This document shows, piece by piece, positions 13,907 through 37,809 of a stretch of 40,450 bases of DNA; the first letter of the stretch is position 1; every line of letters starts with the position of its first letter. A model generated the notes under the pieces. The model was not told where the DNA came from. It made no database searches and worked only from the letters and a program-made list of their open reading frames with translations. The DNA comes from a virus (taxonomy: Duplodnaviria; Caudoviricetes): positions 1 to 40,450 of the IMG/VR virus record IMGVR_UViG_3300031965_000080. One strand, 5' to 3'. The translations under genes and the position numbers were made by a program.

Positions 13907-14274
13907 ACGCAAAACAACTGGCGGCGCTAACGGAGCGCGAGCGGGTGCAGGTTACGCACATCTCCACCAGGACGAGGCCCAACACGTTGGTAGAGATGGT
14001 GCAGGACTTTGCCACCGCCCTTGCCGACGCCCGGCTGGCACTCAAGGACGCCGTCACCGTGCTGATGGAGCACCGCGACCAAGCTGAGCGCTGGGATTTG
14101 CGGGAGCGCGAACTGGAGACTGAGGTCGCACGGCTCACAGAGGAGCGCGCCCACTGGAAGGCCAATCACGATTCACAGGTAGCCAAGAAGAACTCAGGAG
14201 CCGCGAAGATGAAGGCCCACTATGAGGCTGAGGTCGCACGGCTCAACGAGCGGCTTGGTATAATCCAAGAATGA
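13903..14274 (+). CDS. Coiled-coil hypothetical protein (paralog of 11824-12180)
   Basis: GGAGGTG RBS; duplicated N-terminus. Confidence 0.7.
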   Translation: MNAKQLAALTERERVQVTHISTRTRPNTLVEMVQDFATALADARLALKDAVTVLMEHRDQAERWDLRERELETEVARLTEERAHWKANHDSQVAKKNSGAAKMKAHYEAEVARLNERLGIIQE

Positions 14275-14570
14275 GGCGGGTCCGCGAAGACGCATTACCG
14301 GAGAACAAGACCTACTCCGATGATGGGTGCCGGTACGCTGCGAGGTGCCTAGAGTGCCCGTTCAGTGTTTGCGTGACGCACGATCTGGGGCGCGGCGGGA
14401 TAATGGCCTACTTCAACGAGCCGCGCAACGAGACTATCCGTGCGCTGAAGGCTGCGGGCGCCCCCGTAGAGGCCATCACGCGCGAGTTCGGGGTCAGTGA
14501 GCGCACGGTGTTCAGGATAACGTCAGAATCAACGTACAGTGCGTCTAGTAAGGCTGTGATACGCGGGTAA
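14271..14570 (+). CDS. Cys-cluster plus HTH regulator (candidate late activator)
   Basis: LPE...Y.DDGC....CLECP...C followed by an HTH (I.REFGVSERTVFRI); last gene of the early operon. Confidence 0.75.
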   Translation: MRRVREDALPENKTYSDDGCRYAARCLECPFSVCVTHDLGRGGIMAYFNEPRNETIRALKAAGAPVEAITREFGVSERTVFRITSESTYSASSKAVIRG

Positions 14571-18292: not shown

Positions 18293-18829
18293 TTATGTTG
18301 GTGGCTGCGTAGACAAGACGCGATCATTCTTGCCGATGTTGCATTCTTGGCAGGCGGTCACGAGATTGACGGAATCAGATGTTCCGCCCTTGGATAAAGG
18401 ATAGACGTGATCAACGTGCAACTTCACCCCATCTTCGCGGGCAGAGCGGCCACAGTAGCGGCAGCGGAAGCCATCCCGCTCAAGAATGGAGAAGCGGTCA
18501 GTTCGAGCCTGCTTCGCTTTAGGGCGGATGCCACGTCTCCATGCAGTTACTTTACAGTTAGCCGAGCAATAGATACGGCTATCTGGTCCCACGAATGGTT
18601 GATTGCACCAGTGGCAAAGCTGTTCGTAGCGGGTTCGTTGCTTGGTGAGCGGGGATCGCGGCTTTTCCTGTGGTCTGTCGTAATGAGTCCATCCCACCGC
18701 TGTATCGGCCTTCGCTCTGTCTTGCGCTTCGGTTCGGCACTCAAGGCAGCAATAATCGCTGCCTGTGCCCAAATCTTCATCGACTTCATTCCCACAGGTT
18801 TCATTTGCGCACTGTCGCGGTATCATCAT
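18293..18829 (-). CDS. Free-standing HNH endonuclease with N-terminal zinc fingers
   Basis: RFSILERDGFRCRYCG..LHVDHV.P.SKGG...NLVTAC.ECNIGK; own promoter-like TTGGCG-18-TACCAT 6 nt before the ATG (leaderless). Confidence 0.85.
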   Translation of the reverse strand: MMIPRQCANETCGNEVDEDLGTGSDYCCLECRTEAQDRAKADTAVGWTHYDRPQEKPRSPLTKQRTRYEQLCHWCNQPFVGPDSRIYCSANCKVTAWRRGIRPKAKQARTDRFSILERDGFRCRYCGRSAREDGVKLHVDHVYPLSKGGTSDSVNLVTACQECNIGKNDRVLSTQPPT

Positions 18830-18962
18830 AGTTACATGGTAACACGTCGGTATCACGCCCGCCAAAGGGCCTACCGGCAGAGGAAGCGATGACGTTTTCT
18901 CGGACACGTTCACGGCGCCCGCGCCGCAACGAAGAGCGATCTAGCAGCAGAAGGAGAAGGAC

Positions 18963-19533: not shown

Positions 19534-20874
19534 ATGAGTTTCTTCGAAGACACCTTCACCGTCGACGCGCTGACCAACCTGGATGACCACCCTCCAGACG
19601 TTGGCACGTCGTGGACGGCGCTGTGGCAGACGACGGCGGGCCAAGGCTTCGAGATCACCGCCGCCAACGACAACTGCCGCCAGCAGAACCGTGCCAGCAA
19701 GGGTACCATCCACACCGCCGATGCTACCTACCCGTCCGCTGACTACGAACTGGTAGTAAGCGACCTCCACCTCAATCGGGGGGCGGCCGTGGACGACCCA
19801 CTCTATCTCCTCGTCCGCATTCAGGACGAGGAGAACATGTACGCCGTCCGATTGATAGACAATACGGATACGGGCAACGAGTGCCAGCTCTACAAGAAGG
19901 TGGCAGGCACCTGGACGGCGTTGGGCTCTGCGTTCGCGCCGCCTGCCGACGGCTCCCTCTGCAAGCTGGAGATTATCGGCAGCGCCCTGAAGTTCTACGA
20001 CGACGGCGTAGAGGTCGCCAGCGCCACGGACACCGCAATCACGGCGGCGGGCAAGGCCGGTCTCGGTGGCGGAGGCGGCACGGAGCTGGTCGTATCGACC
20101 GATGACCTCAACAACGCCAACTACGTCGATACGCTGTCAATCAATGACCTGGCAACGGGGGGGGTCACCGTCACCCCCACCACGGCCGCTCTGACGCTGA
20201 CCACCTTCGCTCCCACGGTTCTGACGCCCCGCCTGGTCACGCCTGGGGTGGTCGCCCTCGCCCTCACCACCTTTGCCCCCACCGTCGGAATTGGCGTAGT
20301 CGTTACCCCGACGACGGCGGTTCTGACCCTGACGTCGTTCAACCCTACCGTCCAGACGCCGGTAGTGGTGACGCTGGGGGTGCTGGCGTTGACGCTGACG
20401 ACGTTCGCCCCGACCGTCACGGCAGGCGGCAACGTTGTCGTCACCCCGACGACGTTGGCGCTGACGCTCACCACCTTCGCGCCCACCGTCACCGTCTCCG
20501 GCGATGTCGTTGTCACGCCGACGACGCTCGCCCTCACGTTGACCACGTTCGCCCCTACCGTCCTTACGCCCAGGCTGGTCACTCCCGGCGTTCTCAGCCT
20601 CACCCTGACCATGTTCGCGCCCACCGTCCAGATCGGCATCATCGTGACGCCGGGCACCCTGGCCCTCGTCCTGACGCTGTTCGCTCCCACCGTTCTGACC
20701 CCTCGTCTACTCACGCCGGGTACGCTGACCTTGATCCTGACCACGTTCGCGCCTACCCTCGACAACCTATCAATTACGGAGGCTTCCGTTCAGGCCCGCA
20801 AGACCCATCCTCCACGGGGTCATCATGGACATCTGCTAGAGTCTAGTGGACTCTTGCGAGGGAGAAGGATATGA
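19534..20874 (+). CDS. Putative virion fibre: N-terminal lectin-like beta domain plus 9 Thr-rich repeats
   Basis: Nine copies of VTP.T.ALTLTTFAPTV at about 20165-20760. Confidence 0.7.
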   Translation: MSFFEDTFTVDALTNLDDHPPDVGTSWTALWQTTAGQGFEITAANDNCRQQNRASKGTIHTADATYPSADYELVVSDLHLNRGAAVDDPLYLLVRIQDEENMYAVRLIDNTDTGNECQLYKKVAGTWTALGSAFAPPADGSLCKLEIIGSALKFYDDGVEVASATDTAITAAGKAGLGGGGGTELVVSTDDLNNANYVDTLSINDLATGGVTVTPTTAALTLTTFAPTVLTPRLVTPGVVALALTTFAPTVGIGVVVTPTTAVLTLTSFNPTVQTPVVVTLGVLALTLTTFAPTVTAGGNVVVTPTTLALTLTTFAPTVTVSGDVVVTPTTLALTLTTFAPTVLTPRLVTPGVLSLTLTMFAPTVQIGIIVTPGTLALVLTLFAPTVLTPRLLTPGTLTLILTTFAPTLDNLSITEASVQARKTHPPRGHHGHLLESSGLLRGRRI

Positions 20875-22949
20875 GCATCTTCGAGGCTTGGGCTGCCCCG
20901 GTCCGGTACAAGGGGCTCGATCTGATCCCGACCTGGCAAAAGCAGACCCCCCAGGAGACAGGCCAGGAGCTAAGGAACTGGATCGATGAGGGGTACAGCA
21001 AGAACTCACTGATCTACGCCTGCATTGAGGAGATTGCCACGTCCTTTGCGGAACTGCCCCCCCAACTGCTACTGCCCGGCGGCGATGGGTTGGAGGAGGC
21101 GGAGAGTCATGAGATTCTTGACCTCTTGGCTGACCCTAACGAGAGCATGGACGGTTATGAGTTCCTGGCGACGATGGCGACACAGCACCGTGCAGCGGGG
21201 AACGTCTACATTCACAAGGTCCGGCGGTCGGACGTGCCAGATCGCAACCGCTCATTCAGGGCTATCAAGGAGCTTCAGCTTATCCGGCCCGATTACGTCC
21301 AGATAAAGCCCGCGAAGCGCCGCGAGGATGACGTGTTCGAGGTCAGCGTGGACGGGAACGTAAGGGCACGGCTCCCCCGGCGTGATGTAATCCACTGGCG
21401 CACCCGCAACCTGATAAACGACTTCTATGGGCTCTCGCCTGTGGCTCTTCTGGTCTTTGAGGGGAACGTCGACTCGGAGATGACCAAGTTCGACTGGGCA
21501 TTCTTCCGTAACGCCGGTGTCCCGCTGGGCATCCTCAGGACCACCAAGAAGCCGACGCCCGACGAGACGAAGGAGATCAAGGGTGCGTTTCGGCGGATGT
21601 TCAGTGGGATGCGTAAGTGGTTTGAGGTGATGATTCTCCCCGCTGAGGGTGCCGATTACCAGCAGTTGGGTTTGCCAATCAAGGATATGGAGATGCCGGG
21701 AACGCGGGCTCACGTTGAGTCGCGAATCTGCTCCGTGTTCGGGGTGCCGCCTATCCTTGTTGGGGCCAGGGTCGGCCTGGAGGCCGCTGGGGGGCTCACA
21801 ACGACGTCGATTGAGGGATCGCAGTTCTCCTTCTGGTCGGAGACGATGAGCCCGCTAGGTCGCTCCTGGGCATCTCGGATGACGCAGGAACTGTTCAGCG
21901 AGTACAGGACACCACAGCAGCGGGGTGCCGTACTGGGGCTGGACCTGTCCCGCGTCAAGGCTCTCCAGGAGGACAACAGCGACCGGCTCAAGGTAGCGGA
22001 CACCCTGATTCGCAGCGGTGGTTTCACGGTGAACGAAGCACTGGCGCAGGTGGGGCTTCCCGCCATCGACGGGGCGGACTTCTATGTCCGTGCGCTGAAC
22101 CAGGTGGTTGAGACGCCGGTGATGGCTAGCATCAACGGACGCAGGGCCGCTGCCATGCTCATTGAGCCGGAGGTCAAGCGGTTGACGCCACGGGAGCGGC
22201 TGGCCGAGCGCGCCGAGGATGCATTCGCGGATTTCTTCGAGGCACAGGGCCAGAGAGTCGCGGCCCGCTTGCCGAAGAAGGCGCTGGACGTGGGAGACCT
22301 GCTTCCTTCGGAGGAAGAGGAGCTTTTGCGCCGGGCGATACTGGGCTACTGGCAGGAGGCGATAGAGCAGGGTTGGGAGATCGGGGCTGCTGAGGTGGGG
22401 CTGCCGCCGGGGATAGATCACGGCGACCCCCGCGTCGTGCGGCTTTTGGCGGACGGCGGGGAGCGCATCGGTGGTATCACGGAGGAAACCCGCCGCCAGG
22501 TACAACAGGCGCTCTTGACGGCGCGCAACGAGGGGCTGTCGGTGCGCCAGACATCCAGGCTGCTCCAGGACCTCCCCGCGTTCTCACGCGCTAGGGCGCA
22601 GATGGTGGCTAGGACGGAGCTAGGCACGGCGGATAACCTTGCCGCCGCCGCCCGGTATCGTGAGGCTGGCCTAACCCATGTTCAGGTCTTTGATGGTGAC
22701 GGCGATCCTGGGTGCGCTGCGGCGAACGGTGCGATCTGGACGATTGAGGAGTTTGAGGCGAACCCGCTGGAGCATCCGAACTGTGTCCGGTCGCGGGCTC
22801 CGGTGATTCAGGAAGCGGGGAACGGGGCGCACGAAATCAAGGAAGCTCGCTGCCCTGAGTGCAACCGGCTGCTGGCGAAGGACGTTAGGGGGGCGACGAT
22901 CCGCTGCCCGAAGTGCAAGAACGAGGCGCGATTCGGGGTGACGGTATGA
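20871..22949 (+). CDS. HK97-type portal fused to a MuF/gp7-like minor head domain and a C-terminal Com-like zinc finger
   Basis: IYACI..IA, P..V, VIHWR...DFYGLSP, FF.NAG.P, I..VFGVPP, T.NE; then RAQMVARTE...HPNC.R; then RCPECNRLLAK.....IRCPKCK. Confidence 0.88.
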   Translation: MSIFEAWAAPVRYKGLDLIPTWQKQTPQETGQELRNWIDEGYSKNSLIYACIEEIATSFAELPPQLLLPGGDGLEEAESHEILDLLADPNESMDGYEFLATMATQHRAAGNVYIHKVRRSDVPDRNRSFRAIKELQLIRPDYVQIKPAKRREDDVFEVSVDGNVRARLPRRDVIHWRTRNLINDFYGLSPVALLVFEGNVDSEMTKFDWAFFRNAGVPLGILRTTKKPTPDETKEIKGAFRRMFSGMRKWFEVMILPAEGADYQQLGLPIKDMEMPGTRAHVESRICSVFGVPPILVGARVGLEAAGGLTTTSIEGSQFSFWSETMSPLGRSWASRMTQELFSEYRTPQQRGAVLGLDLSRVKALQEDNSDRLKVADTLIRSGGFTVNEALAQVGLPAIDGADFYVRALNQVVETPVMASINGRRAAAMLIEPEVKRLTPRERLAERAEDAFADFFEAQGQRVAARLPKKALDVGDLLPSEEEELLRRAILGYWQEAIEQGWEIGAAEVGLPPGIDHGDPRVVRLLADGGERIGGITEETRRQVQQALLTARNEGLSVRQTSRLLQDLPAFSRARAQMVARTELGTADNLAAAARYREAGLTHVQVFDGDGDPGCAAANGAIWTIEEFEANPLEHPNCVRSRAPVIQEAGNGAHEIKEARCPECNRLLAKDVRGATIRCPKCKNEARFGVTV

Positions 22950-23113
22950 AATTGCGGCACAATCCTGAGAATATCCACGCTTGTTACTGTGCCTGCCATA
23001 ATGGAACTCCAGGCCTCCGTGACGACCCCGCCTGCCTGGACTGCGGGGTCTTGATTTGTCCAACATGTACCCAGGTCGTCCCGCCAAGGCTGCTGAGTGT
23101 GGTGCGCTCGTGA
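22946..23113 (+). CDS. 55-aa Cys/His-rich protein
   Basis: ATGA overlap; HACYCACH..CLDC..CPTC. Confidence 0.55.
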   Translation: MKLRHNPENIHACYCACHNGTPGLRDDPACLDCGVLICPTCTQVVPPRLLSVVRS

Positions 23114-23238
23114 GCAAGCGTAGCCGCGCCCAGAATAAGAAGCGCCAGAAGAGCGAGGGGCGCGAGCGGCAGAAGCAGCGCAACGAGCGGAAGCAGAGCG
23201 CCAAGAAGTCGCGGGCGGAGCACGGGATTAAGCGTTAG
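23110..23238 (+). CDS. 42-aa highly basic peptide
   Basis: GTGA overlap; MSKRSRAQNKKRQKSEGRERQKQRNERKQSAKKSRAEHGIKR. Confidence 0.55.
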   Translation: MSKRSRAQNKKRQKSEGRERQKQRNERKQSAKKSRAEHGIKR

Positions 23239-23242
23239 AACC

Positions 23243-23272
23243 TTGACATCCTGAACCGTTCACCCGCATAAT
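23243..23272 (+). promoter_or_regulatory. Promoter of the capsid/tail operon
   Basis: TTGACA-18 bp-CATAAT; palindrome TGAAC-C-GTTCA in the spacer. Confidence 0.75.
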
Positions 23273-23318
23273 CTAGCCAACAACTGAATACAGGGCCACA
23301 GAGTTCTTCGGAACCAGA

Positions 23319-23367
23319 GCCCGTTTCTAGAGCGTCTTAAGACGCCCGGAAGCGGGCTTTTTGTTTT
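23319..23367 (+). terminator. Intrinsic terminator (attenuator) in the 5' leader of the protease/capsid operon
   Basis: GCCCGTTTC...GAAGCGGGC stem with inner palindrome GCGTCTTAAGACGC, followed by TTTTTGTTTT, ahead of the RBS. Confidence 0.75.
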
Positions 23368-23381
23368 GCCCTGGAGGAAAC

Positions 23382-24017
23382 ATGGATAAGTGGATTAAGG
23401 CAGACCTGGAGGTCAAGGACGACGCTACGGGGACCGTCCAGGCCGCTTTCAGCGTCTTCAACACCATCGACTCTGACGGCGACGTGGTGAAGCCCTCCGC
23501 GTTCAAGGACGGCCAAGAAGTGCCGATGGTCTGGTCGCACATGTGGGACAACCCCGTCGGCAAGGGCACCGTGAAGGTGAGCCGTAAGCAGGCGACGTTT
23601 GACGGGCACTTCTTCCTAGACACGCAGGCCGGTATGGAAGCCTACAAGACGGTCAAGAACATGGGCTCGCTCCAGGAGTGGAGCTTCGGCTTCCGCGTCC
23701 TGGAGGACGAGGAGGGCGACTTCGACGGCCAGCGCGTCCGCTTCTTGAAGGGGCTGGAGTTGTTCGAGGTCAGCCCCGTCTTGGTCGGGGCCAACCGTGA
23801 GACGCGGACGCTGGCGATCAAGGGCGCTGCCCCAGTTATCGCCATCTCTGACCCCGACGCCATGCTCGCTAACGCCCGTGCGATGGTGGCTTATCTGGAG
23901 GGCGCTGAATCTGAATCTGAACCGGAGGGCGGAAAGCAGCCTTTCGAGGAAGAGATCGAACGAGTACGGCGCGAGGAGTTGAGACAGGCGATGCGCCGCG
24001 TATTGGCAAGAGCATAA
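23382..24017 (+). CDS. HK97-family prohead protease
   Basis: GGAGG RBS; DSDGDVV...AF, VPM.WSH, EWSFGF, LFEVSPVLVGAN. Confidence 0.92.
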   Translation: MDKWIKADLEVKDDATGTVQAAFSVFNTIDSDGDVVKPSAFKDGQEVPMVWSHMWDNPVGKGTVKVSRKQATFDGHFFLDTQAGMEAYKTVKNMGSLQEWSFGFRVLEDEEGDFDGQRVRFLKGLELFEVSPVLVGANRETRTLAIKGAAPVIAISDPDAMLANARAMVAYLEGAESESEPEGGKQPFEEEIERVRREELRQAMRRVLARA

Positions 24018-24028
24018 GGAGGGCAACT

Positions 24029-25444
24029 GTGGCAACAGCCACCGATCTAAGAAACGAGGCCCGTGACCTGTTGGGCCGGGCGATGAAGGCCTTGGAGGAG
24101 AAGGACGGCGAATCCTATAGCGCGATCTTCTCCGAGTACCAGGCAAAGGACAAGGAGGCCGATGAGGCCGAGCAGCAGGAAGCGACTCTCAAGGCGGCGA
24201 TGGAGAAGTACGAGCCCGCCAGCGAAGTCCGCAACCTGACTGACGCGTTGGTCAAGGGCCAGGACCCGTCCACGGCGCGCACAGGGGTGTATCTCCACAA
24301 GGAAGGCGCGACGGGCGACTCTTCGGGTAGCTTCGAGGTTATCCCGTTCGCCGATGACAAGACCGAGGGCTGGATCAAGGGCTACCCAGCCTCCGTCCAG
24401 CACCCGGCCATCATCCGGCGGCTGACCCCCGACCTCAAGGTCGCGGCCCAGCAGGAGAACGACGCTTTCTGCAAGTATATCCGCTTCGGCATCCGGTCGC
24501 TCAGTGCAGAGGACCGCAAGGCCCTTATGCGGCTGCGCGACTCAGAGCGGAAGGCGCTGCAGGAGGACACGGACAGCGAGGGCGGCTTCCTGGTTCCGAC
24601 TGATCAGCGCACATCAATCATTCTGGCGAAGGGCGCGATCGGCGGCGTGACCCGCCCGATCTCTACCGTCCTGACCACGACCCGTGACGCCGGCACGATG
24701 CCGGCCTCCACGGACGATGTGACTTGGGCGGCGGTGGCCGAAGAGGCGACGTCATCCGAGAGCAACCCGACGTTCTCTGAGGTCGCGTTCACGATCAAGA
24801 AGTTCATGCGTATCAACAAGGTGTCCGCTGAGCTTCTTGAGGACTCGGCTGTTGACATCGGCTCCCTGTTGACGGGGATGTTCACCCGTTCGCTGGGGAG
24901 GTACGAGGACCAGCAGGCGGTTGAGGGCGACAACTCTACCGAACCGCTGGGCCTTCGCACGACCGGCGCGGCGCAGGGCAACGTTGGGGACATCACCGAC
25001 CTCCTGACCCTGGCCTACCCGACAGCGGTGGAGGTCATCGCCGCGTTCTATGAACTCCCCGCGCAGTGGCGGGCGAACGCGACCTGGCACACCACCAGCT
25101 CCTTCATGGGCTTGCTGGCAGGCATCGGATCGACTGCCGCCGGCATTCACACCTTCTCGGAGCTGATGAACTCCGAGCCCACCCCGCGTCTTCTCGGCCG
25201 CCCCATCGTCTTCTTCGACGGCACCGGGTGGGATAACGGCGCGGCGGTGGCGGCGAACGAAGAGGTGGGGGCTATCGGCGACTTCTCCATGTACTACTTC
25301 GTTGACCGCGTGGGCATGAGCATCCGGCGGCTTGACGAGCTGTATGCGGGGAACGACCAGGTGGGCTTCGCGGCGCGGGTGCGCTACGACTCCCTGTTCG
25401 CCGAGAACGACGCTTTCCGCATCTTGAAGGGCGCCGCCAGCTAG
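24029..25444 (+). CDS. Major capsid protein (HK97 fold with delta domain)
   Basis: AAGGAGG RBS; EGGFLVP, VSAELLEDS, G....P.G, LLGRPI, GDFS.Y, DQVGF..R.R.D. Confidence 0.93.
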   Translation: MATATDLRNEARDLLGRAMKALEEKDGESYSAIFSEYQAKDKEADEAEQQEATLKAAMEKYEPASEVRNLTDALVKGQDPSTARTGVYLHKEGATGDSSGSFEVIPFADDKTEGWIKGYPASVQHPAIIRRLTPDLKVAAQQENDAFCKYIRFGIRSLSAEDRKALMRLRDSERKALQEDTDSEGGFLVPTDQRTSIILAKGAIGGVTRPISTVLTTTRDAGTMPASTDDVTWAAVAEEATSSESNPTFSEVAFTIKKFMRINKVSAELLEDSAVDIGSLLTGMFTRSLGRYEDQQAVEGDNSTEPLGLRTTGAAQGNVGDITDLLTLAYPTAVEVIAAFYELPAQWRANATWHTTSSFMGLLAGIGSTAAGIHTFSELMNSEPTPRLLGRPIVFFDGTGWDNGAAVAANEEVGAIGDFSMYYFVDRVGMSIRRLDELYAGNDQVGFAARVRYDSLFAENDAFRILKGAAS

Positions 25445-25454
25445 TTGACCGAAA

Positions 25455-25476
25455 GGGGGCCGGTCACCCGGCCCCC
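25455..25476 (+). terminator. GC hairpin after the capsid gene (no U tract)
   Basis: GGGGGCCGG-TCAC-CCGGCCCCC. Confidence 0.45.
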
Positions 25477-25500
25477 GCCAACCTTGAATAAGGAGGAAAC

Positions 25501-25890
25501 ATGGGCGCAAGAATGAGCCCAGCGCATAACCCGGTAGGAGCGTTGACGGCTGTTGAGGTGAACGTTCCGAAGTCCGACACCACAGGCACCACCCGTGACG
25601 GGCTGGGGGTAGACCTGGCGGGCAAGCGGGGCTGCTACTTCGTGGTGGCGACGGGAGCCCTAACCGGGCTGGCCACGGTAGCGGCCTACGTTCAGGAGTC
25701 CACGGACAACACCAACTTCACCAACGTCAACGTCACCACGTACCCCGACGCGACACTGGCGGCCTCCAACGCTGCCTCTGGAGTTCGGGAGATGTGGGTC
25801 AGGCGTGACCAGGTAGCCCAGTATGTCCGCGTGCAGCTGGTGATCGCTGCCAACACCGCTCTCACAAGCTGCGTGGCGGTGGCGTACTAG
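25501..25890 (+). CDS. Capsid decoration / cement-like protein
   Basis: Directly after the capsid gene; VQES.DNT.F..V...YVRV jelly-roll-like pattern. Confidence 0.6.
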   Translation: MGARMSPAHNPVGALTAVEVNVPKSDTTGTTRDGLGVDLAGKRGCYFVVATGALTGLATVAAYVQESTDNTNFTNVNVTTYPDATLAASNAASGVREMWVRRDQVAQYVRVQLVIAANTALTSCVAVAY

Positions 25891-26147
25891 TGCGGGTACG
25901 GCTTCTGGTACAGACCGACGTCCGCGTAGCTGGCGAGCGAAAGGCGCTGTTCGACGGGCAGGCGTATAACCTGCCCGTCGAACTTGCCGAAGAGCTGATC
26001 GCAACGGGTAAGGCGGTGAGCTTGGAGCCTACGTTTCAAGAAGCTCCTGTTTATCAGCCTGAGCGGATTGAGGAGAAGGCCGTCCACGGGCCGCCGGAAG
26101 ACAAGGCGCTGAAACCAGCCAAACGCAAGTACAGAAGGCGAGGGTAG
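25890..26147 (+). CDS. Small head-associated protein
   Basis: A.ELIA.GKA motif and basic tail typical of post-capsid genes. Confidence 0.55.
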   Translation: MRVRLLVQTDVRVAGERKALFDGQAYNLPVELAEELIATGKAVSLEPTFQEAPVYQPERIEEKAVHGPPEDKALKPAKRKYRRRG

Positions 26148-26166
26148 CTATACGCCGCTCACATAC

Positions 26167-27000
26167 TTGGCCACCCCGATCTGGCGATACTACGACGTTC
26201 GCGCAGCGCAGGCGATGGTCGCCGCAATCGCCACCCGTGCCCCAGTTGACGACATGTACTGGGAGGCGCTGGATGGCGACGCCCTGATCTTCCGCTCGCG
26301 CTCCATCCTGGCGACCAAGATGCTCAGGGAGCCGATGCTGGAAGGTGCGGATATCATGGTCATTCTTGACGATGATGTTCAGTTCCTTCCCGACGACCTG
26401 GAGAGGATCATCCGTCAGGCGCGAGAACTACAGGAACCCGTGGGCGGGATGTACGTCACTCGTTCCCGTGAGCCACACATCGCGTCCCTGCTCTGGCCGA
26501 ACCAGTCCATCCTCTTCGGCCCCGGCCAAGAACTTGTGAATGTGCGGTATCTGGCGACGGGTTTCATGGCGATCCCCCGTGTGGTGCTGGAGAAGATGCT
26601 GGCGCATCCCGGCTTCCAGACGGTTCACGGAACGGAGCCGCTGGTCTTCTATGAGCAGGGCGTGGGCGACAATCCCCTCTGGGACTTCTTCCGGCCCTTC
26701 GGCATCAGGGAGGGCGACACGCTCCGGGCGGCAGGCTACGAGAACGCCGACGAACGCAACCATATTCTCTCAGAAGACTGGGCCTTCTGCGAACGCGCCC
26801 GGCAGTGCGGCTTTCAGATATGGGCCGACCCGACGATCATCCTTCAGCACCGCGCCATCGTCTCGGTGACGGTGAACGACCTCGGCGTCAAGCACGGGAT
26901 GTTGAGCACGGAAGGGGCTCCGGCGCAGGGGAGGTCTGTTCTCGCGGTCGCCGGTCAAGAGGTAGGCAGCCATCAGGAAGCATTGGTGACGAAGACGTGA
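26167..27000 (+). CDS. GT-A fold glycosyltransferase
   Basis: ILDDDVQF (DxD), ATGFMAI.R.V, SEDWAFCERAR..GFQIWAD....L.H. Confidence 0.85.
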   Translation: MATPIWRYYDVRAAQAMVAAIATRAPVDDMYWEALDGDALIFRSRSILATKMLREPMLEGADIMVILDDDVQFLPDDLERIIRQARELQEPVGGMYVTRSREPHIASLLWPNQSILFGPGQELVNVRYLATGFMAIPRVVLEKMLAHPGFQTVHGTEPLVFYEQGVGDNPLWDFFRPFGIREGDTLRAAGYENADERNHILSEDWAFCERARQCGFQIWADPTIILQHRAIVSVTVNDLGVKHGMLSTEGAPAQGRSVLAVAGQEVGSHQEALVTKT

Positions 27001-27602
27001 GTCTGAACACGAAGAACGCTGGGGCTCTAACCCGTTCGCGGAGCCGGTTTGCGGACATGCAGGAGGCGGAGTTCGCCTGGTGGAAGAACTACCTCCGGCA
27101 CCCAACGGCGAAACAGCGGATGCTCGCCCTCTACGGGACGCGATATTACCCGTACCTTTTCGCTGAGATGATGGACGCTGGCCGCACGGTTGAGATCGGG
27201 TCGGGGCCGCTGCCGGTGATGGAGACAATGCTCTACGACCGGGGCGTGGCCATCGACACGCTGGGCCCGCGCTACAAGGCGGAGCAGCTGACGACATGGG
27301 AGATTCTGCCTAACCACGAGGCCATTGAGTCCGAGTGGGCCGATACCGTGCTCCTGCTGAACGTGCTGGACCACACCGACCAGCCGGAGGCCCTGGTAGC
27401 GCAGGCCCACCGCCTACTCCGTGACGGCGGCAGAGCGCTGGTGTTCGTCCACCTGGGTCCTGGAGACGATAAGCATATCCCGATTAGCGCGGAGCAGGTC
27501 ACGGCCTGGCTAGGCGCTTTCACCGTGGAACGCGCTGCTGTGCTCCCGGCGACTTCGTATGACCCCCCTGCCTATGTAGCCGTGGCGGTGAAGCATGGGT
27601 AA
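26997..27602 (+). CDS. Class I SAM-dependent methyltransferase
   Basis: VEIGSGP (motif I), AID, D.V.LLNVLDH, RLLRDGG. Confidence 0.82.
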   Translation: MSLNTKNAGALTRSRSRFADMQEAEFAWWKNYLRHPTAKQRMLALYGTRYYPYLFAEMMDAGRTVEIGSGPLPVMETMLYDRGVAIDTLGPRYKAEQLTTWEILPNHEAIESEWADTVLLLNVLDHTDQPEALVAQAHRLLRDGGRALVFVHLGPGDDKHIPISAEQVTAWLGAFTVERAAVLPATSYDPPAYVAVAVKHG

Positions 27603-28689
27603 CTGGTACGCAACCCGCGAACAGCTAAAGCGCGCTGCCGAGATCAAGGGCTCCGACCAGGACACGCAAGTTGACCGCCATATTGAGGCGGCGTCGCGGC
27701 ACATCGATAGAGTGCTGGGGTTGCGCGGGGGTGTGTTCATTCCCAAGACGCAGACGCGCAACTTTGAATGGCCACAGGATACTGACGTTGAGGGCCGTCA
27801 CCGCAACGGCTACACGCTGTTCCTTGACGAACACCTAATCTCCATCTCAGGCGTGACTCGTGACGGGGACACAGCGACGGCTATTCCGACTGCTGACATC
27901 TTCCTTGAGCCTGCGAACGAGGGGCCGCCCTACACCCGTTTGGAGCTTGACCGTTCCTCCACCGACGCTGACGCGACGTTCGCCTCCACGATTAGCACGA
28001 CGAACCAGCGCGCCGTGCGCGTGGCCGGTTCCTGGGGCTACAACAGCGCGACGGAGGCGGCGGGGACCGTCTCTTCGGGGTTGGCCTCGGACGCCGCGGC
28101 AACCTCAATGGTCTGCTCGAACGCAGCGCTGATTGACGTGGGCGACACCCTCCTCATTGAGAGCGAGCAGGTGTTCGTCTCTGAGCGGGCGTTCGCCGCG
28201 CTGGGCGCGATCCTTGTTAGCGACGCCGCTATCACGGCGGATATGACTGACAACACGATCACCGTGGACGGCTCGCACGGCTTGGTGGCCGGGGAGATTA
28301 TCAAGCTGGACTCAGAGGAAATCTACATCACCAGCGTCGCCACGAACGTACTCTCTGTCATCCGCGCCTACAACGGCACCGCATTGGCGGCGCACGCTGA
28401 TGATACCGCCGTTCAGGTGGCGCGGACCTTGACCATTGTGCGGGCACAGAACGGCACTACAGGGGCGACGCACGCCAACGCCACGGCAATCAACAAGTAC
28501 GCCGTGCCGAAGGACGTTAACGAATACGCCGTCGCCAGGTCGCTCCATGCTTTCACGCAGGACGAGGGGCGATGGACGGGCGTTGTCGGCGCGGGGGACT
28601 CTGCCGTGGAGCTGCGCGGGCGGATTCTCAACCAGATGGAGGCCGCGCTAATGGTCAAGTACGACCGGCCTCTGGCGAGGGTGCTGTGA
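27595..28689 (+). CDS. Head-tail adaptor (gp6/gp15-like) with inserted beta domains
   Basis: YAT..QLK..IEAASR.ID, V.V.G.WGY, VP.DV; two G..I.I.SE...V.RA.NGT..A.HA units inserted. Confidence 0.75.
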   Translation: MGNWYATREQLKRAAEIKGSDQDTQVDRHIEAASRHIDRVLGLRGGVFIPKTQTRNFEWPQDTDVEGRHRNGYTLFLDEHLISISGVTRDGDTATAIPTADIFLEPANEGPPYTRLELDRSSTDADATFASTISTTNQRAVRVAGSWGYNSATEAAGTVSSGLASDAAATSMVCSNAALIDVGDTLLIESEQVFVSERAFAALGAILVSDAAITADMTDNTITVDGSHGLVAGEIIKLDSEEIYITSVATNVLSVIRAYNGTALAAHADDTAVQVARTLTIVRAQNGTTGATHANATAINKYAVPKDVNEYAVARSLHAFTQDEGRWTGVVGAGDSAVELRGRILNQMEAALMVKYDRPLARVL

Positions 28690-29108
28690 ACCTGAATGTG
28701 AAGGTGTCGGGGCCGTTCTTCAGCCTGGGGCCGAAGCCTGTTCTCGACTCACTCCATGCCGCCATTCAGGAAACGGTGCTCACGGGCGAGGGCTTGGCTG
28801 TGGCGATGGCGCAGCCGCGAGAGCGCGGCGGGGTGTTCCATTCGGGTGCCTACGCCGCTGCCCATGGCTACCGCCACACGGGGCACTACGCCCGCTCAAT
28901 CAATGGCCGGATGGTGGGCTCCCTGAACGGCGTTATTAGCGACTCAGGCGTCGTATACGGTCCCTGGCTTGAAGGCGTGGGCAGCCGCAACGAGACGACT
29001 CGGTTCAAGGGGTACGCGATATTCCGCCGCACCCGTGACAAGCTTCAGAAGCTCGGCGGCGAGATACTAAACCGTCACGTCAGGAAAGCACTGGACAGGT
29101 TGCGCTAG
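28686..29108 (+). CDS. Tail completion protein (HK97 gp10-like)
   Basis: TG.Y.RSI...VYGPWLEG.G. Confidence 0.65.
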   Translation: MNLNVKVSGPFFSLGPKPVLDSLHAAIQETVLTGEGLAVAMAQPRERGGVFHSGAYAAAHGYRHTGHYARSINGRMVGSLNGVISDSGVVYGPWLEGVGSRNETTRFKGYAIFRRTRDKLQKLGGEILNRHVRKALDRLR

Positions 29109-29555
29109 ATGGCGTTCAATCCCCAGGGCCTGCTCCAGAAGACGCACAGCTTCCTGGCGGCATCTGCTCGCTTCCCTGGCGGTGCCTTTATCGGGGAGCC
29201 TAAAGCCCCGCCAACGGCCTTAGCCGCTGCCGTCATGCTGGCCTCGGTCGGCATCCCTGAGATAACGCTGACTCATGCGCAGGGGCTCTTGAACCTGAGC
29301 GTCAGGCTCTACCATGACGCCTTCGCTACGCCGCTTGAGGATACGGAGATAGTGATGGCGCAGGCCGTCTTCGAGTTGATTGAGGACTTCTGCGGCGACT
29401 TCAATTTCAGCGACGCGAACGTGCGGAATCTGAAACCCACGGACTTGACGGTCACGTTCGGCTATCAGCAGATCGGCGGGGACGCAGGCAAGATGTTCCG
29501 CATTGCGGACATCTCAATCCCGCTCCTCGTCAACGATGTGGCGGTGTTCGGCTAG
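29109..29555 (+). CDS. Tail terminator protein (putative)
   Basis: Position and size before the tail tube genes. Confidence 0.55.
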   Translation: MAFNPQGLLQKTHSFLAASARFPGGAFIGEPKAPPTALAAAVMLASVGIPEITLTHAQGLLNLSVRLYHDAFATPLEDTEIVMAQAVFELIEDFCGDFNFSDANVRNLKPTDLTVTFGYQQIGGDAGKMFRIADISIPLLVNDVAVFG

Positions 29556-29564
29556 GAGGCGACT

Positions 29565-30314
29565 ATGGCCAAGCAATCTGGACTCGGCGACAACTTCTAT
29601 GTAGGCGGCTCAGACCTGTCCGGCGACGTGGGGGCGGTGCAGACTATCCGCTCCTCGGTGAACCCGCTCGTCGTGACGGGGCTCGACAAGAGCGCCCACG
29701 AGCGCATCTTCGGCCAGTACGACGGCGAGATTTCGTTCAACAGCTTCTTTAACGACGCCGCCCTTGCCGAACACGCAGAACTCAAGCTCTTACCCAGGAC
29801 GGACACGCTTGTTTCCTACTTCCGGGGTACGGCGCTGGGCGGTGAGTCCGCCTGCCTCACGGGGAAGCAGATCAACTATGACCCGTCACGCACAGCGGAT
29901 GGCGGGCTGATCTTCAGCGTTCAGGCGCTGTCCAACGCCTACGGGCTGGAGTGGGGAAAGTCGCTTACGGCCGGCAAGCGGACGGACACGGTGGCCACCG
30001 CGCCGGCCACAGGCGTTGATTTCACGGACGTATCAACCGCGTTCGGGATGGCGGCGTACCTGCACGTTTTCTCATTCACCGGAACGTCCGTAACCATGCG
30101 GATACAGGACTCCGCTGACAACTCAACGTTTGCCAACATCACGGGGCTAGGCGCGTTCCCTGCTGCAACGGGTTCAACCTTTGAGCGGCAGGAGACAGAC
30201 ACGCTAGCGCGTACCATCCGTCGCTACCTCAAGGTCAACACGACGGGAACATTCAGCGAATGCACGTTCGCGGTGGTGGCGGTTCGCTACTACGCAGCGG
30301 ACAGGGCTTTGTAA
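29565..30314 (+). CDS. Tail tube-like protein with a C-terminal decoration domain
   Basis: DLSGDV......VTGLDKS..ERI.G..DG.I...FFND; C-terminus resembles 25501-25890. Confidence 0.7.
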   Translation: MAKQSGLGDNFYVGGSDLSGDVGAVQTIRSSVNPLVVTGLDKSAHERIFGQYDGEISFNSFFNDAALAEHAELKLLPRTDTLVSYFRGTALGGESACLTGKQINYDPSRTADGGLIFSVQALSNAYGLEWGKSLTAGKRTDTVATAPATGVDFTDVSTAFGMAAYLHVFSFTGTSVTMRIQDSADNSTFANITGLGAFPAATGSTFERQETDTLARTIRRYLKVNTTGTFSECTFAVVAVRYYAADRAL

Positions 30315-30340
30315 ACGGGTTAGTAAAGGAGGGTTAGCAA

Positions 30341-30757
30341 TTGGCTAAGGAAAGTGGTCTTCCGTCCACGCTCTCGGTGGATGACAGCGGCGGCACGCTC
30401 AGGGACATCTCTAACGATGTCACGTCCGTCACGATCAACACCCCATCGGGTGTTCAGGACGTGACAGGGCTGGACAAGAGCGGGATGGAGCGTTTGCTGT
30501 TGCTGGCCGACGGGTCCGGCACCATCAACGGCGTGTTCAACGACGCCGCCACCACGGGCTCGCACACCGTCCTGAAGAACTACCGGACGATTCTGGCGGG
30601 CCAGGTGGGGCGGACGCTGACATTCGCCGTCAGCGGGCAGACGCTAACGATGGAGGTCATCTTCACGAGCTATGACCTGAACCGGGCGGCGGACGGCTCG
30701 TTGACGTTCTCAGCGCCGTTCCAGCTCTCGAATGGGACTGTTCCGGCCTGGAGCTAG
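30341..30757 (+). CDS. Major tail tube protein
   Basis: AAAGGAGG RBS; DISNDV...DVTGLDKSGMER....DG.......FND. Confidence 0.75.
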   Translation: MAKESGLPSTLSVDDSGGTLRDISNDVTSVTINTPSGVQDVTGLDKSGMERLLLLADGSGTINGVFNDAATTGSHTVLKNYRTILAGQVGRTLTFAVSGQTLTMEVIFTSYDLNRAADGSLTFSAPFQLSNGTVPAWS

Positions 30758-31107
30758 CGGTCATCGTAATACGGAGAAAAAGGCGGTGAGTCGCCCAGAT
30801 ATCCGGCCTCAGCGCAGGCATCGCCCATTGCGAATTGAATCAGGGCCTTGTCGCTGGCCGTGGCATTGGGCACGAGTTCTGATACCACGAGCCAATAGTC
30901 CGGCTCGCAGAACAAGTCTGGGTCCGCAGCGCCAATATCGGACTGAGCTTGGCGCAGAAAGGCGTTGTAAAGCTGCTGCCGGATATCTGGAGGGGCTGAT
31001 GATGCCGGTGTTGCGGATTCATTGCTGGAACCGAGAGCGGCGATGACAACAACCATGATCATTAGGCCCGCTCCCACAAATGCGGCAACCCGCCAATTGT
31101 TAAGCAT
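30754..31107 (-). CDS. Membrane-anchored moron protein, antisense within the tail operon
   Basis: AAAGGAGG RBS; extended -10 TGCTATACT; N-terminal TM, Ser/Pro linker, two Cys. Confidence 0.65.
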   Translation of the reverse strand: MLNNWRVAAFVGAGLMIMVVVIAALGSSNESATPASSAPPDIRQQLYNAFLRQAQSDIGAADPDLFCEPDYWLVVSELVPNATASDKALIQFAMGDACAEAGYLGDSPPFSPYYDDR

Positions 31108-31152
31108 GACATCCCCTCCTTTCGGGGATATCAGTATAGCACCGGAGTCAAG

Positions 31153-31557
31153 ATGGTGACGAAAGCGAAGCGGCCAGCGGTAGACAACGGCCACGGCCTC
31201 AAGATGCCGGTCAAGGTCGTCCGCCTGTCATTTGACGAGGATGGGTACGAGGGTTTCCTCTGCGACCGGCGCACGAACCTGCCTATCGGCACGAACCGGC
31301 AGCTTGCCGAAGCCGCCGACGGCAGCGAAGAGGCCGTCTATCGGGGCTTGCTCTTGCAGGTCTACCCCTGGTGGAACTTCGCGGACGAAGACGGGGAGCC
31401 GATACCGCATAGCGTGGAAGGCTTTGACTTTATCCCTGATGACCTTCTGATCGCTATGTTCCGCCGTGGAGCCGAGGCTCTGCGAGAGGCGGTGATGCCT
31501 GTCCCTTTAGGAACCGGATCATCGGACGCGCACAGCGAGAGCGAGCTGGAGTCCTGA
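31153..31557 (+). CDS. Tail assembly chaperone (gpG-like)
   Basis: WNF.DEDGEPIP motif; located before the tape measure gene. Confidence 0.8.
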   Translation: MVTKAKRPAVDNGHGLKMPVKVVRLSFDEDGYEGFLCDRRTNLPIGTNRQLAEAADGSEEAVYRGLLLQVYPWWNFADEDGEPIPHSVEGFDFIPDDLLIAMFRRGAEALREAVMPVPLGTGSSDAHSESELES

Positions 31558-31742
31558 CCGATGCGGACCAGGACGTTTTCGGCTGCTATCCGGAATGGGC
31601 GCTCCGCAAGGTGGCGGCGCACTATAACCGCCCCTGGTGGGAGCTGTTAGACGTGAGGGAGGACTGGATGGCGGAGGAAGCGGAGCTGCTGGACGTGCGA
31701 CAAGAGATAGCGGCGATGGAGCGGGATAAGTGGCGAACGTAG
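31503..31742 (+). CDS. Tail chaperone -1 frameshift extension (gpGT-like)
   Basis: In-frame slippery heptamer C CCT TTA at 31503-31509; the -1 frame is open for 77 codons to TAG 31740-31742 and contains RPWWELL. Confidence 0.75.
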   Translation, partial: PFRNRIIGRAQRERAGVLTDADQDVFGCYPEWALRKVAAHYNRPWWELLDVREDWMAEEAELLDVRQEIAAMERDKWRT

Positions 31743-34006
31743 TCCAGATACTTGTTCAGGGCCAGGACCAGTTTTCGGGGACGGCCCAGAAGGTCAGCAC
31801 GGAGGCGCGGGGCTTGGGCGGAGCAATGGGCGGTCTGAAGACAACGATGATCGGTGTCGCGGCTGGCTTCATTGCGGCCCAGGTCGGGATGATGAGCGTT
31901 CAGAAAGTGCTCTCTTCCACCGTGGGGGCGGCGACGGCCTACGAGCACCAGCTAGCGGTGATCCGTGCCCTGACCGGGGCAACGAAGGGCGACACCGATA
32001 CCCTCAAAGTTGCCATCAAGGAAATGCAGAAGACCCTCCCGAAGAGCGCTGCTGAACTGGGGGCTGGCGCGTACTTCATCCTATCGTCTGGCATCAACGA
32101 TGTAGCCACCGCCACGAAGGTTCTGGAGCTCTCGGCGAAGGCGTCCACGATCGGCCTGGGCGAGACAGGCGTAGTGGCCAGCGTCCTTACCTCCATTATG
32201 AACGCCTACCAGCTCCAGGCGAAGGACGCGGCGAAGGCGACGGACACGCTGGTCAACATCGTCAAGTTGGGCAAGGGCGAGCCGACGGAGTTCGCAGGGG
32301 CGCTTGGCCGCGTCATTCCCATCGCGGCTCAGATGGGTATTGAATTTGAGCAGGTAGGCGCGGTGCTGGCGACGCTGACGAACACCGGCCTCTCTGCCGA
32401 GGAATCGGTAGTTGCCCTGCGCGGCATCATGGTACAAATCCTCAAGCCCACGGACGAGGCGCGGGAGGCGTTCGCCGCAATGGGCTTCGACGTTGTGGCG
32501 TTCCGCAAGGAACTTGATGAGAACTTCGTCGGGGCGATGGCGCGGCTCTCCCGATCTGTGGGTGATAACGAAGAGGCGTGGTCAACCCTGTTCCCTGAAG
32601 TGCGGGGCATGGTCGGCGTTATGGCGGCGTTCGGCAATCAGCTCCCGCAGACCGAGCAAAATCTAAAGGGCATAACCGACGGCGCGGGGGCACTGGAACA
32701 GGGATTCAAGGAAGTCTCTGAGACGACACAGTTCAAGCTCCAGAAGGCGATGAACGACCTGAACGTTCAGCTTCAAGAGTTGGGCACTACGGCGCTCCCT
32801 GCGGTGGGGGCACTGGTAAGTATCATTAATGATCTGGCAGTTGCGGCGGATGCTGCTGTTCATCCTGTGCGGTCACTCGGTGTAGCAATCGAATCAATCC
32901 CTGAGCGGGCACATAAGCCGTTCCTCGGCCTGTTCAGGGATGTGGAGATGACGGCGGAGAGCTTGGTCAACATGGGGCGTGACGCCCACCTGTCCCGGCA
33001 GGAGATTATGGAGTGGGGGGCGGAGGTTGGCCTAAGTGCCGAAGAAGTGCGTGAGGCGATGGGGGAAACCGGGGTGGCGAGCAGCAATTCCTTGCTGAAC
33101 ATGACGCGCGCCTCCGAAGAGGCGGGCTTTGCATGGAAGCAGATGGCGGGAATCGGGCGGCGTGAGGTCGTTCCTGGCCTAGAGGACATCGGGGTCGCCG
33201 CCGGGCAAACAAGCCAACTGTTTAAGGACTTTACTGGGGATGTCCGGGGTGGTCTGCGCTCCGTGATGCCGGAGGTAAACGAAAGTTTCAATGAGTGGAC
33301 GACACGGCTGACCGATCTAGGGCAGGACTACTCCACGATGGAGGGGAACCTGCAAACGATCATGGACGCCCTGGTCGGGCAGCATGTGCGCGGCGTCGAC
33401 GACATCATGGCCGTCGTGCGGGGCCAGGGGCCGGAGTTCGCCGCCGACTTCGCGCAGTGGTTCCGCGACGACCCCATCGCCGCGGCGCAGACGCTGCAGC
33501 AGGTGATGCCCGGCATCATGCGTCAGGCGGCGACGGAGGCGATCACCAACGTCGTGGCGGCCACCTCGCGGTTCAACGAGGAGTGGCAGAAGAACGTCAT
33601 CGGAGCCCTGAATAAACTGCCAGAGGAAAAGCGCATCAACATCATCGCCGACGTGGACCCGGAGCTGTGGCAGGCGGCGGCGATGGTGGAGCTCATGAAG
33701 ACGGGCCAGATACCGGTAGACGTTCTAGCTCTTGCGAGGGCGACGCCCCACGCCGCCGGCGGCACGGTGCGCTCGGCCCTCCAGATCGTCGGCGAGGAGG
33801 GGCCGGAGCTGGCCGCGCTGCCGATGGGGACGCGCATCTTCGACGCCGGGCAGACTCAGCAGATGCTTTCGGACGCAGGCGGCGGATCGGCCAGCGGTGG
33901 CAACACTTACGTCTTCAATTTCAGCGGCCCCGTCCTCGGCGACCAGTCGCAGGCGAACCAGCTTGTGCAGTGGATTCTCCCCTCGCTCAGGGGGGCGCTG
34001 CGGTGA
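31730..34006 (+). CDS. Tape measure protein (TP901-like core), 758 aa
   Basis: Helical Ala-rich; A....D.L...V..GK, GL.AE......R; C-terminal A.GG....VGEEGPEL. Confidence 0.92.
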   Translation: MANVVQILVQGQDQFSGTAQKVSTEARGLGGAMGGLKTTMIGVAAGFIAAQVGMMSVQKVLSSTVGAATAYEHQLAVIRALTGATKGDTDTLKVAIKEMQKTLPKSAAELGAGAYFILSSGINDVATATKVLELSAKASTIGLGETGVVASVLTSIMNAYQLQAKDAAKATDTLVNIVKLGKGEPTEFAGALGRVIPIAAQMGIEFEQVGAVLATLTNTGLSAEESVVALRGIMVQILKPTDEAREAFAAMGFDVVAFRKELDENFVGAMARLSRSVGDNEEAWSTLFPEVRGMVGVMAAFGNQLPQTEQNLKGITDGAGALEQGFKEVSETTQFKLQKAMNDLNVQLQELGTTALPAVGALVSIINDLAVAADAAVHPVRSLGVAIESIPERAHKPFLGLFRDVEMTAESLVNMGRDAHLSRQEIMEWGAEVGLSAEEVREAMGETGVASSNSLLNMTRASEEAGFAWKQMAGIGRREVVPGLEDIGVAAGQTSQLFKDFTGDVRGGLRSVMPEVNESFNEWTTRLTDLGQDYSTMEGNLQTIMDALVGQHVRGVDDIMAVVRGQGPEFAADFAQWFRDDPIAAAQTLQQVMPGIMRQAATEAITNVVAATSRFNEEWQKNVIGALNKLPEEKRINIIADVDPELWQAAAMVELMKTGQIPVDVLALARATPHAAGGTVRSALQIVGEEGPELAALPMGTRIFDAGQTQQMLSDAGGGSASGGNTYVFNFSGPVLGDQSQANQLVQWILPSLRGALR

Positions 34007-35889: not shown

Positions 35890-35896
35890 GAGAGAC

Positions 35897-36397
35897 ATGG
35901 CTAACGATACCTGGACGGCCCCCGGCGACTGGACAACGAATGAAGTTGTCACCGCCGCCAAGCTCAACCAGCAGCTCCGCGATAACCTCTACGCTCTCTG
36001 GCTGGCGATCACCACTGGCAGCACTGCCATCACGGAGCGGTTCAGTTCTGGGGTCTACACGCCGACATTGACCAACGGTACGAACGTCGCTGCGTCCGGC
36101 GCTTATGAGTGCCAGTGGATGCGGATCGGGTCTGTGGTCGCCGTGAGCGGGAAGGCGGACATTGACCCCACCGCCTCTGCGACGATCACGAGCCTGGGCA
36201 TCGAGCTTCCCGTCGCCAGCAACTTCGCGGCCGGTCAGGACTGCGGTGGGGTGGGCGCGAGCTACAACTTGGGTACTGCCGGAGCCTTCGGCGCGATAGT
36301 GGCAGACCCCGACAATGACCGCGCGCTGTTGAACTTCTACGCTAACTCTCTGGCAAATCAGGGATGGTTCTTCACCTTCCAGTATCAGGTGATCTAA
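35897..36397 (+). CDS. Minor tail protein
   Basis: W...EVVTAAKLNQ..RDNL; YTPTLT...W.RIG.VV. Confidence 0.7.
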   Translation: MANDTWTAPGDWTTNEVVTAAKLNQQLRDNLYALWLAITTGSTAITERFSSGVYTPTLTNGTNVAASGAYECQWMRIGSVVAVSGKADIDPTASATITSLGIELPVASNFAAGQDCGGVGASYNLGTAGAFGAIVADPDNDRALLNFYANSLANQGWFFTFQYQVI

Positions 36398-37633: not shown

Positions 37634-37809
37634 TGAAGTCTACTCGCAAGTACCGGCGCAACTGTCAACGTTGCGGGCACATCTACTGGTCGCCCGACGT
37701 GTTCGCTGGCGGCTCTTTCTGCTTCGTCCCCACCAAGGGGATCGGCTGGTGCTTGCACTGCCGCGAAGCGCATCCAAATGAGGCTGAGGAACTGGCGACA
37801 TGCGCCTGA
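37633..37809 (+). CDS. 58-aa zinc-finger protein (CQRC...CLHC)
   Basis: TAATG coupling to the fibre gene; not in the ORF track. Confidence 0.55.
   Translation: MKSTRKYRRNCQRCGHIYWSPDVFAGGSFCFVPTKGIGWCLHCREAHPNEAEELATCA

Follow-up and report, generated by a model that had tools for sequence, protein, structure and literature searches.

We analysed a stretch of 40,450 nucleotides (nt) from a tailed virus (Duplodnaviria; Caudoviricetes), positions 1 to 40,450 of the IMG/VR record IMGVR_UViG_3300031965_000080, here called the window. It contains a portal gene whose open reading frame (ORF) continues through a MuF domain into a Com-like zinc finger, followed by an RNA leader that ends in an intrinsic terminator just before the prohead protease gene. 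A preliminary description of this DNA had proposed that the portal-borne finger binds the leader and switches on the head and tail genes. The elements concerned are listed below (aa, amino acids).

20871..22949, + strand: portal-MuF-finger fusion ORF, 692 aa, uninterrupted frame
21012..22046, + strand: HK97-type portal domain, aa 48-392 (PF04860, Phage_portal, E 2.9e-53)
22497..22784, + strand: MuF domain, aa 543-638 (PF04233, Phage_Mu_F, E 1.2e-7)
22833..22934, + strand: Com-like C4 zinc ribbon, aa 655-688, predicted RNA-binding regulator (PF10122, PHROG, structure model)
23243..23272, + strand: sigma-70-type promoter, TTGACA-18-CATAAT, 11/12 match to consensus
23282..23290, + strand: AACTGAATA box close to the predicted 5' end of the RNA, found exactly once in the window and recurring in both lineages described below
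23293..23322, + strand: predicted antiterminator, in which a GGGC/GCCC helix closes an internal loop that surrounds the 23303-23314 hairpin (folding)
23319..23367, + strand: intrinsic terminator with inner hairpin 23332-23345 and U-tract 23358-23367 (sequence prediction)
23368..23384, + strand: conserved GCCCTG, Shine-Dalgarno (SD) sequence GGAGG and protease ATG (sequence, conservation)
23382..24017, + strand: prohead protease, first gene behind the terminator (PF04586, E 2.7e-20)

The portal ORF is indeed open through MuF into the C4 finger, whose first Cys is at position 22851, and the Pfam domains PF04860 and PF04233 lie within this one ORF between the terminase and protease genes, as in a portal-MuF protein. 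Scanned alone, the last 49 aa reach 23.5 bits with PF10122, above the gathering cut-off of 22.9 and at the top of 44 families, which agrees with the Com assignment made earlier; the score falls below the cut-off in the whole 692-aa protein (17.4 bits) and in the genome scan (20 bits), in which the finger is the sole Com-like match of the virus record. Its top PHROG matches are 6417 (translational regulator) and 13819 (gpCom). The finger is modelled as a four-strand ribbon (predicted local distance difference test, pLDDT, 86), and the full-protein model separates portal, MuF and finger into distinct domains with low-confidence linkers at aa 408-434 and 648-653. Fold searches with the finger model returned no match at E<=0.001 (best Z 2.5) and were uninformative, and no CAT_RBD/PRD or ANTAR domain was found in the 692-aa protein with Pfam at E<=1. 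The strongest internal start for a separate finger is weak (-3.0 kcal/mol). Since no strong internal start is present and the model shows a ribbon of its own behind a short low-confidence linker, the finger of the window is likely synthesised within the portal polypeptide. A contig of run X1, possibly the source of this DNA, covers 22300-23700 with 0 differences. A sequencing artefact or a chance read-through as the source of the fusion was ruled out, because MuF and finger share one frame in 17 of 19 related loci, the other two being interrupted by contig ends.

The leader was also found as first described. The promoter is present at 23243-23272, with no other + strand promoter-like site in 20001-40000; the main terminator stem (23319-23357) and its U-tract precede both the ribosome-binding site (RBS, 23373-23377) and the ATG at 23382; the GTTC-TTCG-GAAC hairpin occupies 23303-23314; and the four AG(A/G)G(C/T) repeats stand at exactly the positions given for them (23292, 23300, 23316, and 23329), a number equalled in 0.27% of 4036 window tiles of 103 nt. 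The leader (23279-23385) folds with -44.3 kcal/mol (z -4.2). Both alternative pairings that had been suggested for its 5' strand are seen in silico. When a growing transcript is folded, the 5' GGGC pairs with 23319-23322, the 5' arm of the terminator, for transcript ends 23325-23352, after which the terminator forms; in the full leader the same strand pairs instead with 23368-23373, that is, with the GCCCTG next to the RBS. The predicted energies are -33.7 kcal/mol for the terminator fold and -24.1 kcal/mol for the antiterminator fold. Searches against Rfam gave 0 matches over threshold in the window and 10 related loci (best E for the leader 5.1).

The available passages of PMC6483171 describe the site of Com as CC(N)2-3GAG in a hairpin loop, duplex forms being bound weakly. 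The window leader has one such CC(N2-3)GAG site, at 23296, and the predicted antiterminator holds CC-N3-GAG at 23296-23303 and CC-N1-GAG at 23314-23319. We propose that the finger probably clamps the antiterminator and so lets transcription into the head-tail genes. By default, without protein, the terminator would win by invading the 4-bp GGGC/GCCC helix. The finger, carried on the portal polypeptide, would bind the CC-N-GAG loops of the nascent leader, hold the antiterminator fold and block this invasion; read-through by RNA polymerase into the genes for protease, capsid and tail would then wait until portal protein is present. The two or three sites of a leader would suit a multimeric carrier. 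More speculatively, a portal built into a prohead would carry its C-terminal finger inside the shell, where the C-terminal side of portals lies, and the signal would go off. Feedback of this kind, from unassembled portal and ended by burial in proheads, is suggested here only tentatively.

The portal-finger fusion is real and recurrent. A search with residues 560-692 gave 34 proteins, of which 4 end in a finger (the window's own included) and 30 are portal-MuF proteins that stop after MuF. Among the 17 loci with MuF and finger in one frame, 10 have a window-type leader at 78-1686 nt from the stop, and 6 end before any protease. A second lineage was reached through the DNA pattern AACTGAATA..GAGNNCC, via locus L174. 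It consists of HK97 portals without MuF, about 30% identical to that of the window and followed by a ClpP-type protease. Its 34 loci (L343-L376), two of which lie in Dehalococcoidia metagenome-assembled genomes, include 33 complete portals, and all 33 end in a finger, His and short-knuckle variants among them. A profile built from 9 fingers, 8 of them fused and thus biased towards fusions, found 272 matches at E<=0.001 among 1.84 billion representatives. The best 150 of these include 74 proteins of <100 aa and 59 of at least 150 aa; when 58 long matches were scanned, 40 had a portal or MuF domain (HK97 portal 13, portal-MuF 14, MuF 12, Mu-type portal 1). In a quick tree of 84 portal domains, which leaves out P0065 and includes 29 unfused database proteins of unknown context, accounting for the fused label takes 7 changes, with at least 5 by well-supported branches. 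Three proteins of MuF or portal-MuF type (P0075, P0091, P0092) contain an intein domain and still have the finger at their end.

The yield of the pattern searches was low. AATACAGGGCCA..AGAG in viral contigs gave 36 stretches with 1 true relative; the pattern that led to the second lineage gave 120 loci, mostly by chance, 6 with an upstream Cys pattern; and 7 of 120 loci from an RBS pattern passed a filter for start and T-tract, 6 of them true leaders. A tblastn search of the finger against annotated phages gave 10 weak matches, none informative (one region was read). Loci L005-L021 and L081-L091 were discarded, their match covering residues 1-25 only.

Conservation of the leader in relatives, which the preliminary description had put forward as a check, was observed: promoter, hairpins and terminator are kept, with compensatory changes. 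The promoter persists across gaps of 78-1686 nt, and a hairpin with U-tract precedes the protease in 34/34 fused loci examined (31 by rule, and besides these L070, at a contig end, L345 and L353). In the nine sequences of the window variant, compensatory changes affect 2/4 pairs of the antiterminator inner hairpin and 2/5 pairs of the terminator inner hairpin, a total of 4 pairs and 8 cells that none of 500 shuffles equalled for cells; in the main terminator stem 99% of cells are paired. A second leader variant has the lengths of its two loop strands swapped, with C...GA kept on each; the pair counts of a 13-sequence alignment were set aside because this variant was misregistered there. The published motif is enriched: 25 leaders (34 were located; 8 near-copies and one false pick were dropped) contain 24 CC(N2-3)GAG sites versus a shuffled mean of 9.4, and 0/500 shuffles are as high. 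Reverse-complement controls were not enriched. Locus L080, whose finger is stand-alone, also speaks for the motif, which occurs there in exact bipartite form ahead of a capsid-like gene. A relaxed motif, fitted after the fact, occurs in 22/25 leaders. A geometry-based site count (48 vs 16.7) was set aside, as its last position is not letter-specific (48/40/42 for A/C/G).

Leader and finger also co-vary. Of 20 second-lineage loci, 19 were used (L366 was dropped, its protease not being parsed); in these, leader similarity follows finger similarity with a partial rho of 0.265 (p 0.015) once portal and protease are removed, while its partial rho is 0.004 with the portal and -0.17 with the protease. 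Furthermore, L362 and L364, like L360 and L361, have near-identical portals and different fingers, and each leader resembles those of loci with the same finger type. Four portals (L379, L380, L381, L401) end in a helix-turn-helix (HTH)-like tail instead of a finger, with weak Pfam matches below the cut-offs in the three that were scanned; the leader is found by rule in 0/4 of these loci, L401 having a weak hairpin and four T. L379 is nested among fused portals on the tree. The gaps behind the HTH portals contain short direct DNA repeats with a spacing of 11-12 nt (L379:3994-4290, L380:3621-3745, L381:5455-5535, L401:3965-4050), one repeat being common to L379 and L401, with other repeats in L380 and L381. 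Possibly these are a DNA-level version of portal-borne control. It may even be, though we regard this as doubtful, that tailed phages repeatedly grafted a regulator onto the portal C-terminus, either a Com finger paired with a terminator leader or an HTH paired with DNA repeats; unassembled portal would then permit transcription of the capsid and tail genes, and its burial in the prohead would end the signal.

A very improbable alternative, suggested by analogy with phi29 pRNA, the portal-bound packaging RNA, is that the terminated RNA of about 85 nt is itself the product, a packaging or decoy RNA tethered to the portal by the fingers. It would account for the strong promoter and terminator of the leader's own, its conserved structure and the RNA-binding-type domain on the portal; on the other hand, the leader always adjoins the protease RBS, its length and fold vary widely, and close relatives lack it (the HTH portals) or have the finger as a free gene.

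Several observations weigh against the antitermination switch proposed here. Some concern the leaders themselves. The outer GGGC/GCCC helix is invariant in the nine sequences, and covariation is uninformative on the antiterminator helix because it never varies. The published motif is present in 14/25 leaders and missing from 11/25, and a reversed-motif control is also raised (17 vs 9.3, 4/500 shuffles). The test for capture of the terminator arm by upstream RNA gave a weak result: arm sequestration averages 0.65 vs 0.53 shuffled and reaches p<=0.1 in 7/25 leaders, the p of the window being 0.08. Its set of control terminators was small (10) and included one true leader, L345. Many of the loci are near-copies of one another. 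The antiterminator fold shows the Com motif in an internal loop, not in a hairpin loop; a form with the motif in a hairpin loop closed by C-G, as for Com, is possible at 23292-23307, yet competes with the covarying inner hairpin. This form is the sole canonical hairpin-form Com site of the window and is compatible with the terminator fold.

Since the only hairpin-form site belongs to the terminator fold, the sign of control is not fixed for the window variant, and the finger might bind the leader but control translation, as Mu Com does, or repress by favouring the terminator. We consider this unlikely. It would fit the pairing of the 5' strand with the GCCCTG adjoining the SD in the full leader, and a CC-N-GAG that overlaps the SD too. 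A locus of a possibly Mu-like kind is L080 (1008-1220), where a stand-alone Com finger with the exact bipartite motif known from SELEX stands before a capsid-like gene; it lacks a terminator by rule and resembles an SD-blocking leader, in that its motif arm could pair with the SD in a translational form. Against this reading, the U-tract terminator stands before the RBS in all the fused loci examined, and in many second-lineage leaders the 3' arm of the motif hairpin is the 5' arm of the terminator.

Other objections concern the company that leader and finger keep. The association between them could alternatively come from one recombination tract moving both neighbours. One of the 17 in-frame loci (L067) combines the clade's finger with a different leader and protease and lacks the published motif; in L399 the promoter, terminator and motif occur with no finger in the locus. 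These two loci are counter-examples to the tracking of finger type by leader type. Such mismatches would fit if the finger were a structural or DNA-binding tail in the MuF cargo slot and another factor controlled the leader, for instance the predicted late activator or a boxA-like use of AACTGAATA. A weak late-activator match at 14271-14570 (E 7.6e-5) is available for this role; in some phage loci with no finger close by (L113, L122, L136, L187), AACTGAATA lies upstream of terminator hairpins; and MuF C-terminal extensions are described as a variable cargo slot in the passages available of PMC5576092. We give this explanation a small chance as well, because MuF-less portals also end in the finger, the published Com motif is enriched in the leaders, and the leader tracks the finger and is absent where an HTH replaces it.

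The most probable rival explanation bears on the fusion rather than on the switch. Five sister loci (L377, L378, L382, L404, L405) carry the finger as a gene of its own in the same slot, where the portal or MuF frame stops or shortly after it; a clear terminator is present in 2 of them, a likely or weak one in 2, and none was seen in 1; the switch therefore does not need the fusion. In addition, a strong in-frame SD and start precede the finger in 8/25 fused ORFs versus a background of 8.9%, a count that Glu-rich linkers may inflate. The switch could thus work as proposed while the fusion is incidental, a coupled finger gene having lost the preceding stop, and the finger would then act free or clipped and without assembly feedback. 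This possibility, which qualifies the antitermination proposal and does not replace it, comes close to an even chance. The many short profile matches, the variety of proteins to which the finger is joined and the internal starts all speak for it. Against it, 33/33 complete portals of one clade keep the fusion even where the finger has been swapped; inserts as long as 1.7 kb lie between finger and promoter, with finger and MuF still in one frame; HTH-like tails are also fused to portals; and in 4/25 fused ORFs no in-frame start ahead of the finger shows any SD pairing. Overall, incidental fusion of coupled genes and feedback by burial in proheads appear about equally plausible. What the preliminary description had put forward, a portal-borne Com-like finger switching a leader, is partly supported, in that the finger is Com-like and fused, the leader is conserved, the motif is enriched and the leader tracks the finger; it is weakened in that the fusion is not required and the hairpin-form site fits the terminator fold.

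Further features surround the leader. Two small ORFs between finger and promoter (22946-23113 and 23110-23238) had been left out of the first reading.

22946..23113, + strand: 55-aa Cys-rich ORF, variable filler of the finger-promoter gap, seen in L003, absent from L001 and L004
23110..23238, + strand: 42-aa basic ORF, present in several relatives
24029..25444, + strand: major capsid protein (PF05065, E 1.4e-37)

Related locus L066 has no room for the small ORFs, its gap being only 78 nt, and keeps the leader. In relatives the gap (22946-23238 in the window) measures 78-1686 nt and is a hot spot of insertion, holding small Cys-rich, basic and HNH-like ORFs; at L001:3459-3480 the first 14 bases of an inserted ORF are identical to those at the 5' end of the window leader. 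The adaptor, tail tube and tape measure genes follow the capsid gene on the + strand. Because the genes from protease to tape measure run on this strand, the head-tail block appears to sit behind the terminator at 23319-23367. Upstream, the late-activator match (phrog_836, + strand) could be a tier above the portal switch. A 446-aa protein with about 10 Thr-rich repeats and no Pfam or PHROG match is encoded directly before the portal (19534-20874, + strand), and an HNH gene lies on the opposite strand between terminase and portal (18293-18913, - strand).

The proposed switch would work like RAT (ribonucleic antiterminator) or ANTAR antitermination, with a Com-type domain as the binding part. 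In the BglG/LicT RAT and ANTAR systems, a protein-bound hairpin or internal loop overlaps the terminator 5' arm, with two sites per leader. In the window, a predicted alternative fold would take the terminator 5' arm, a tendency that is only weakly above shuffles across the 25 leaders, and the predicted terminator lies between the promoter and the first gene; here, however, the binding domain is unrelated, there is no sensory input domain and the carrier is a virion structural protein. Structural proteins that regulate are themselves familiar: unassembled P22 scaffolding protein autoregulates its own operon, and among ribosomal proteins L10(L12)4 is said to bind a leader RNA and repress its own operon by attenuation. 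In each case an unassembled structural protein on a leader reports assembly; the portal differs in that it would activate a downstream operon.

As to Com itself, the portal-finger system is not the com-mom system. In the available passages of PMC6483171, Mu Com (PF10122) shares the C4 finger, a CC(N2-3)GAG site in the downstream leader and a finger gene just upstream of the likely target; it differs in being a free protein of 62 aa and in activating a DNA-modification gene at the translational level, whereas here the finger is fused to a portal-MuF protein and an intrinsic terminator precedes the prohead protease and head genes. Com fingers have also been reused before other late or phage-derived genes. 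The passages seen of PMC6240691 place com-like genes before Pseudomonas L-type bacteriocins, tailocin cargo and levansucrase, their role being stated as unexplored, and those of PMC3299994 place them before Mu-like methyltransferases; in these passages such genes are stand-alone, with no portal, MuF or terminator switch. MuF proteins behind portals with an extra C-terminal domain are covered by PMC5576092, in the accessible part of which the extensions are toxin domains or uncharacterised and the word "zinc" has 0 occurrences in the main text; our finger differs in that it is also found on MuF-less portals. Finally, the consulted parts of PMC10690425 report candidate cis-regulatory RNAs directly before head-module genes, namely GP20-a, GP20-b and six further candidates upstream of phage GP20 genes and, in its supplement, one ClpP-linked candidate (DNAVirus_3201), and name no protein partner in those passages. 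In the literature searched, which covered few subscription papers, no portal-finger fusion or Com antitermination was found. Stand-alone Com-like fingers being already known, the new part is the portal-borne regulator.

Portals have so far been treated as purely structural and packaging parts. If the proposal is true, gene expression in tailed phages would be coupled to capsid assembly through a portal that turns on the head-tail operon, perhaps as an assembly checkpoint inside the first-laid part of the virion. It would also assign a role to the unannotated finger gene that is common in head modules and extend Com from translation to antitermination. The finger-leader pairs of differing sequence would then represent a natural, compact RNA-protein switch that is testable in E. 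coli.

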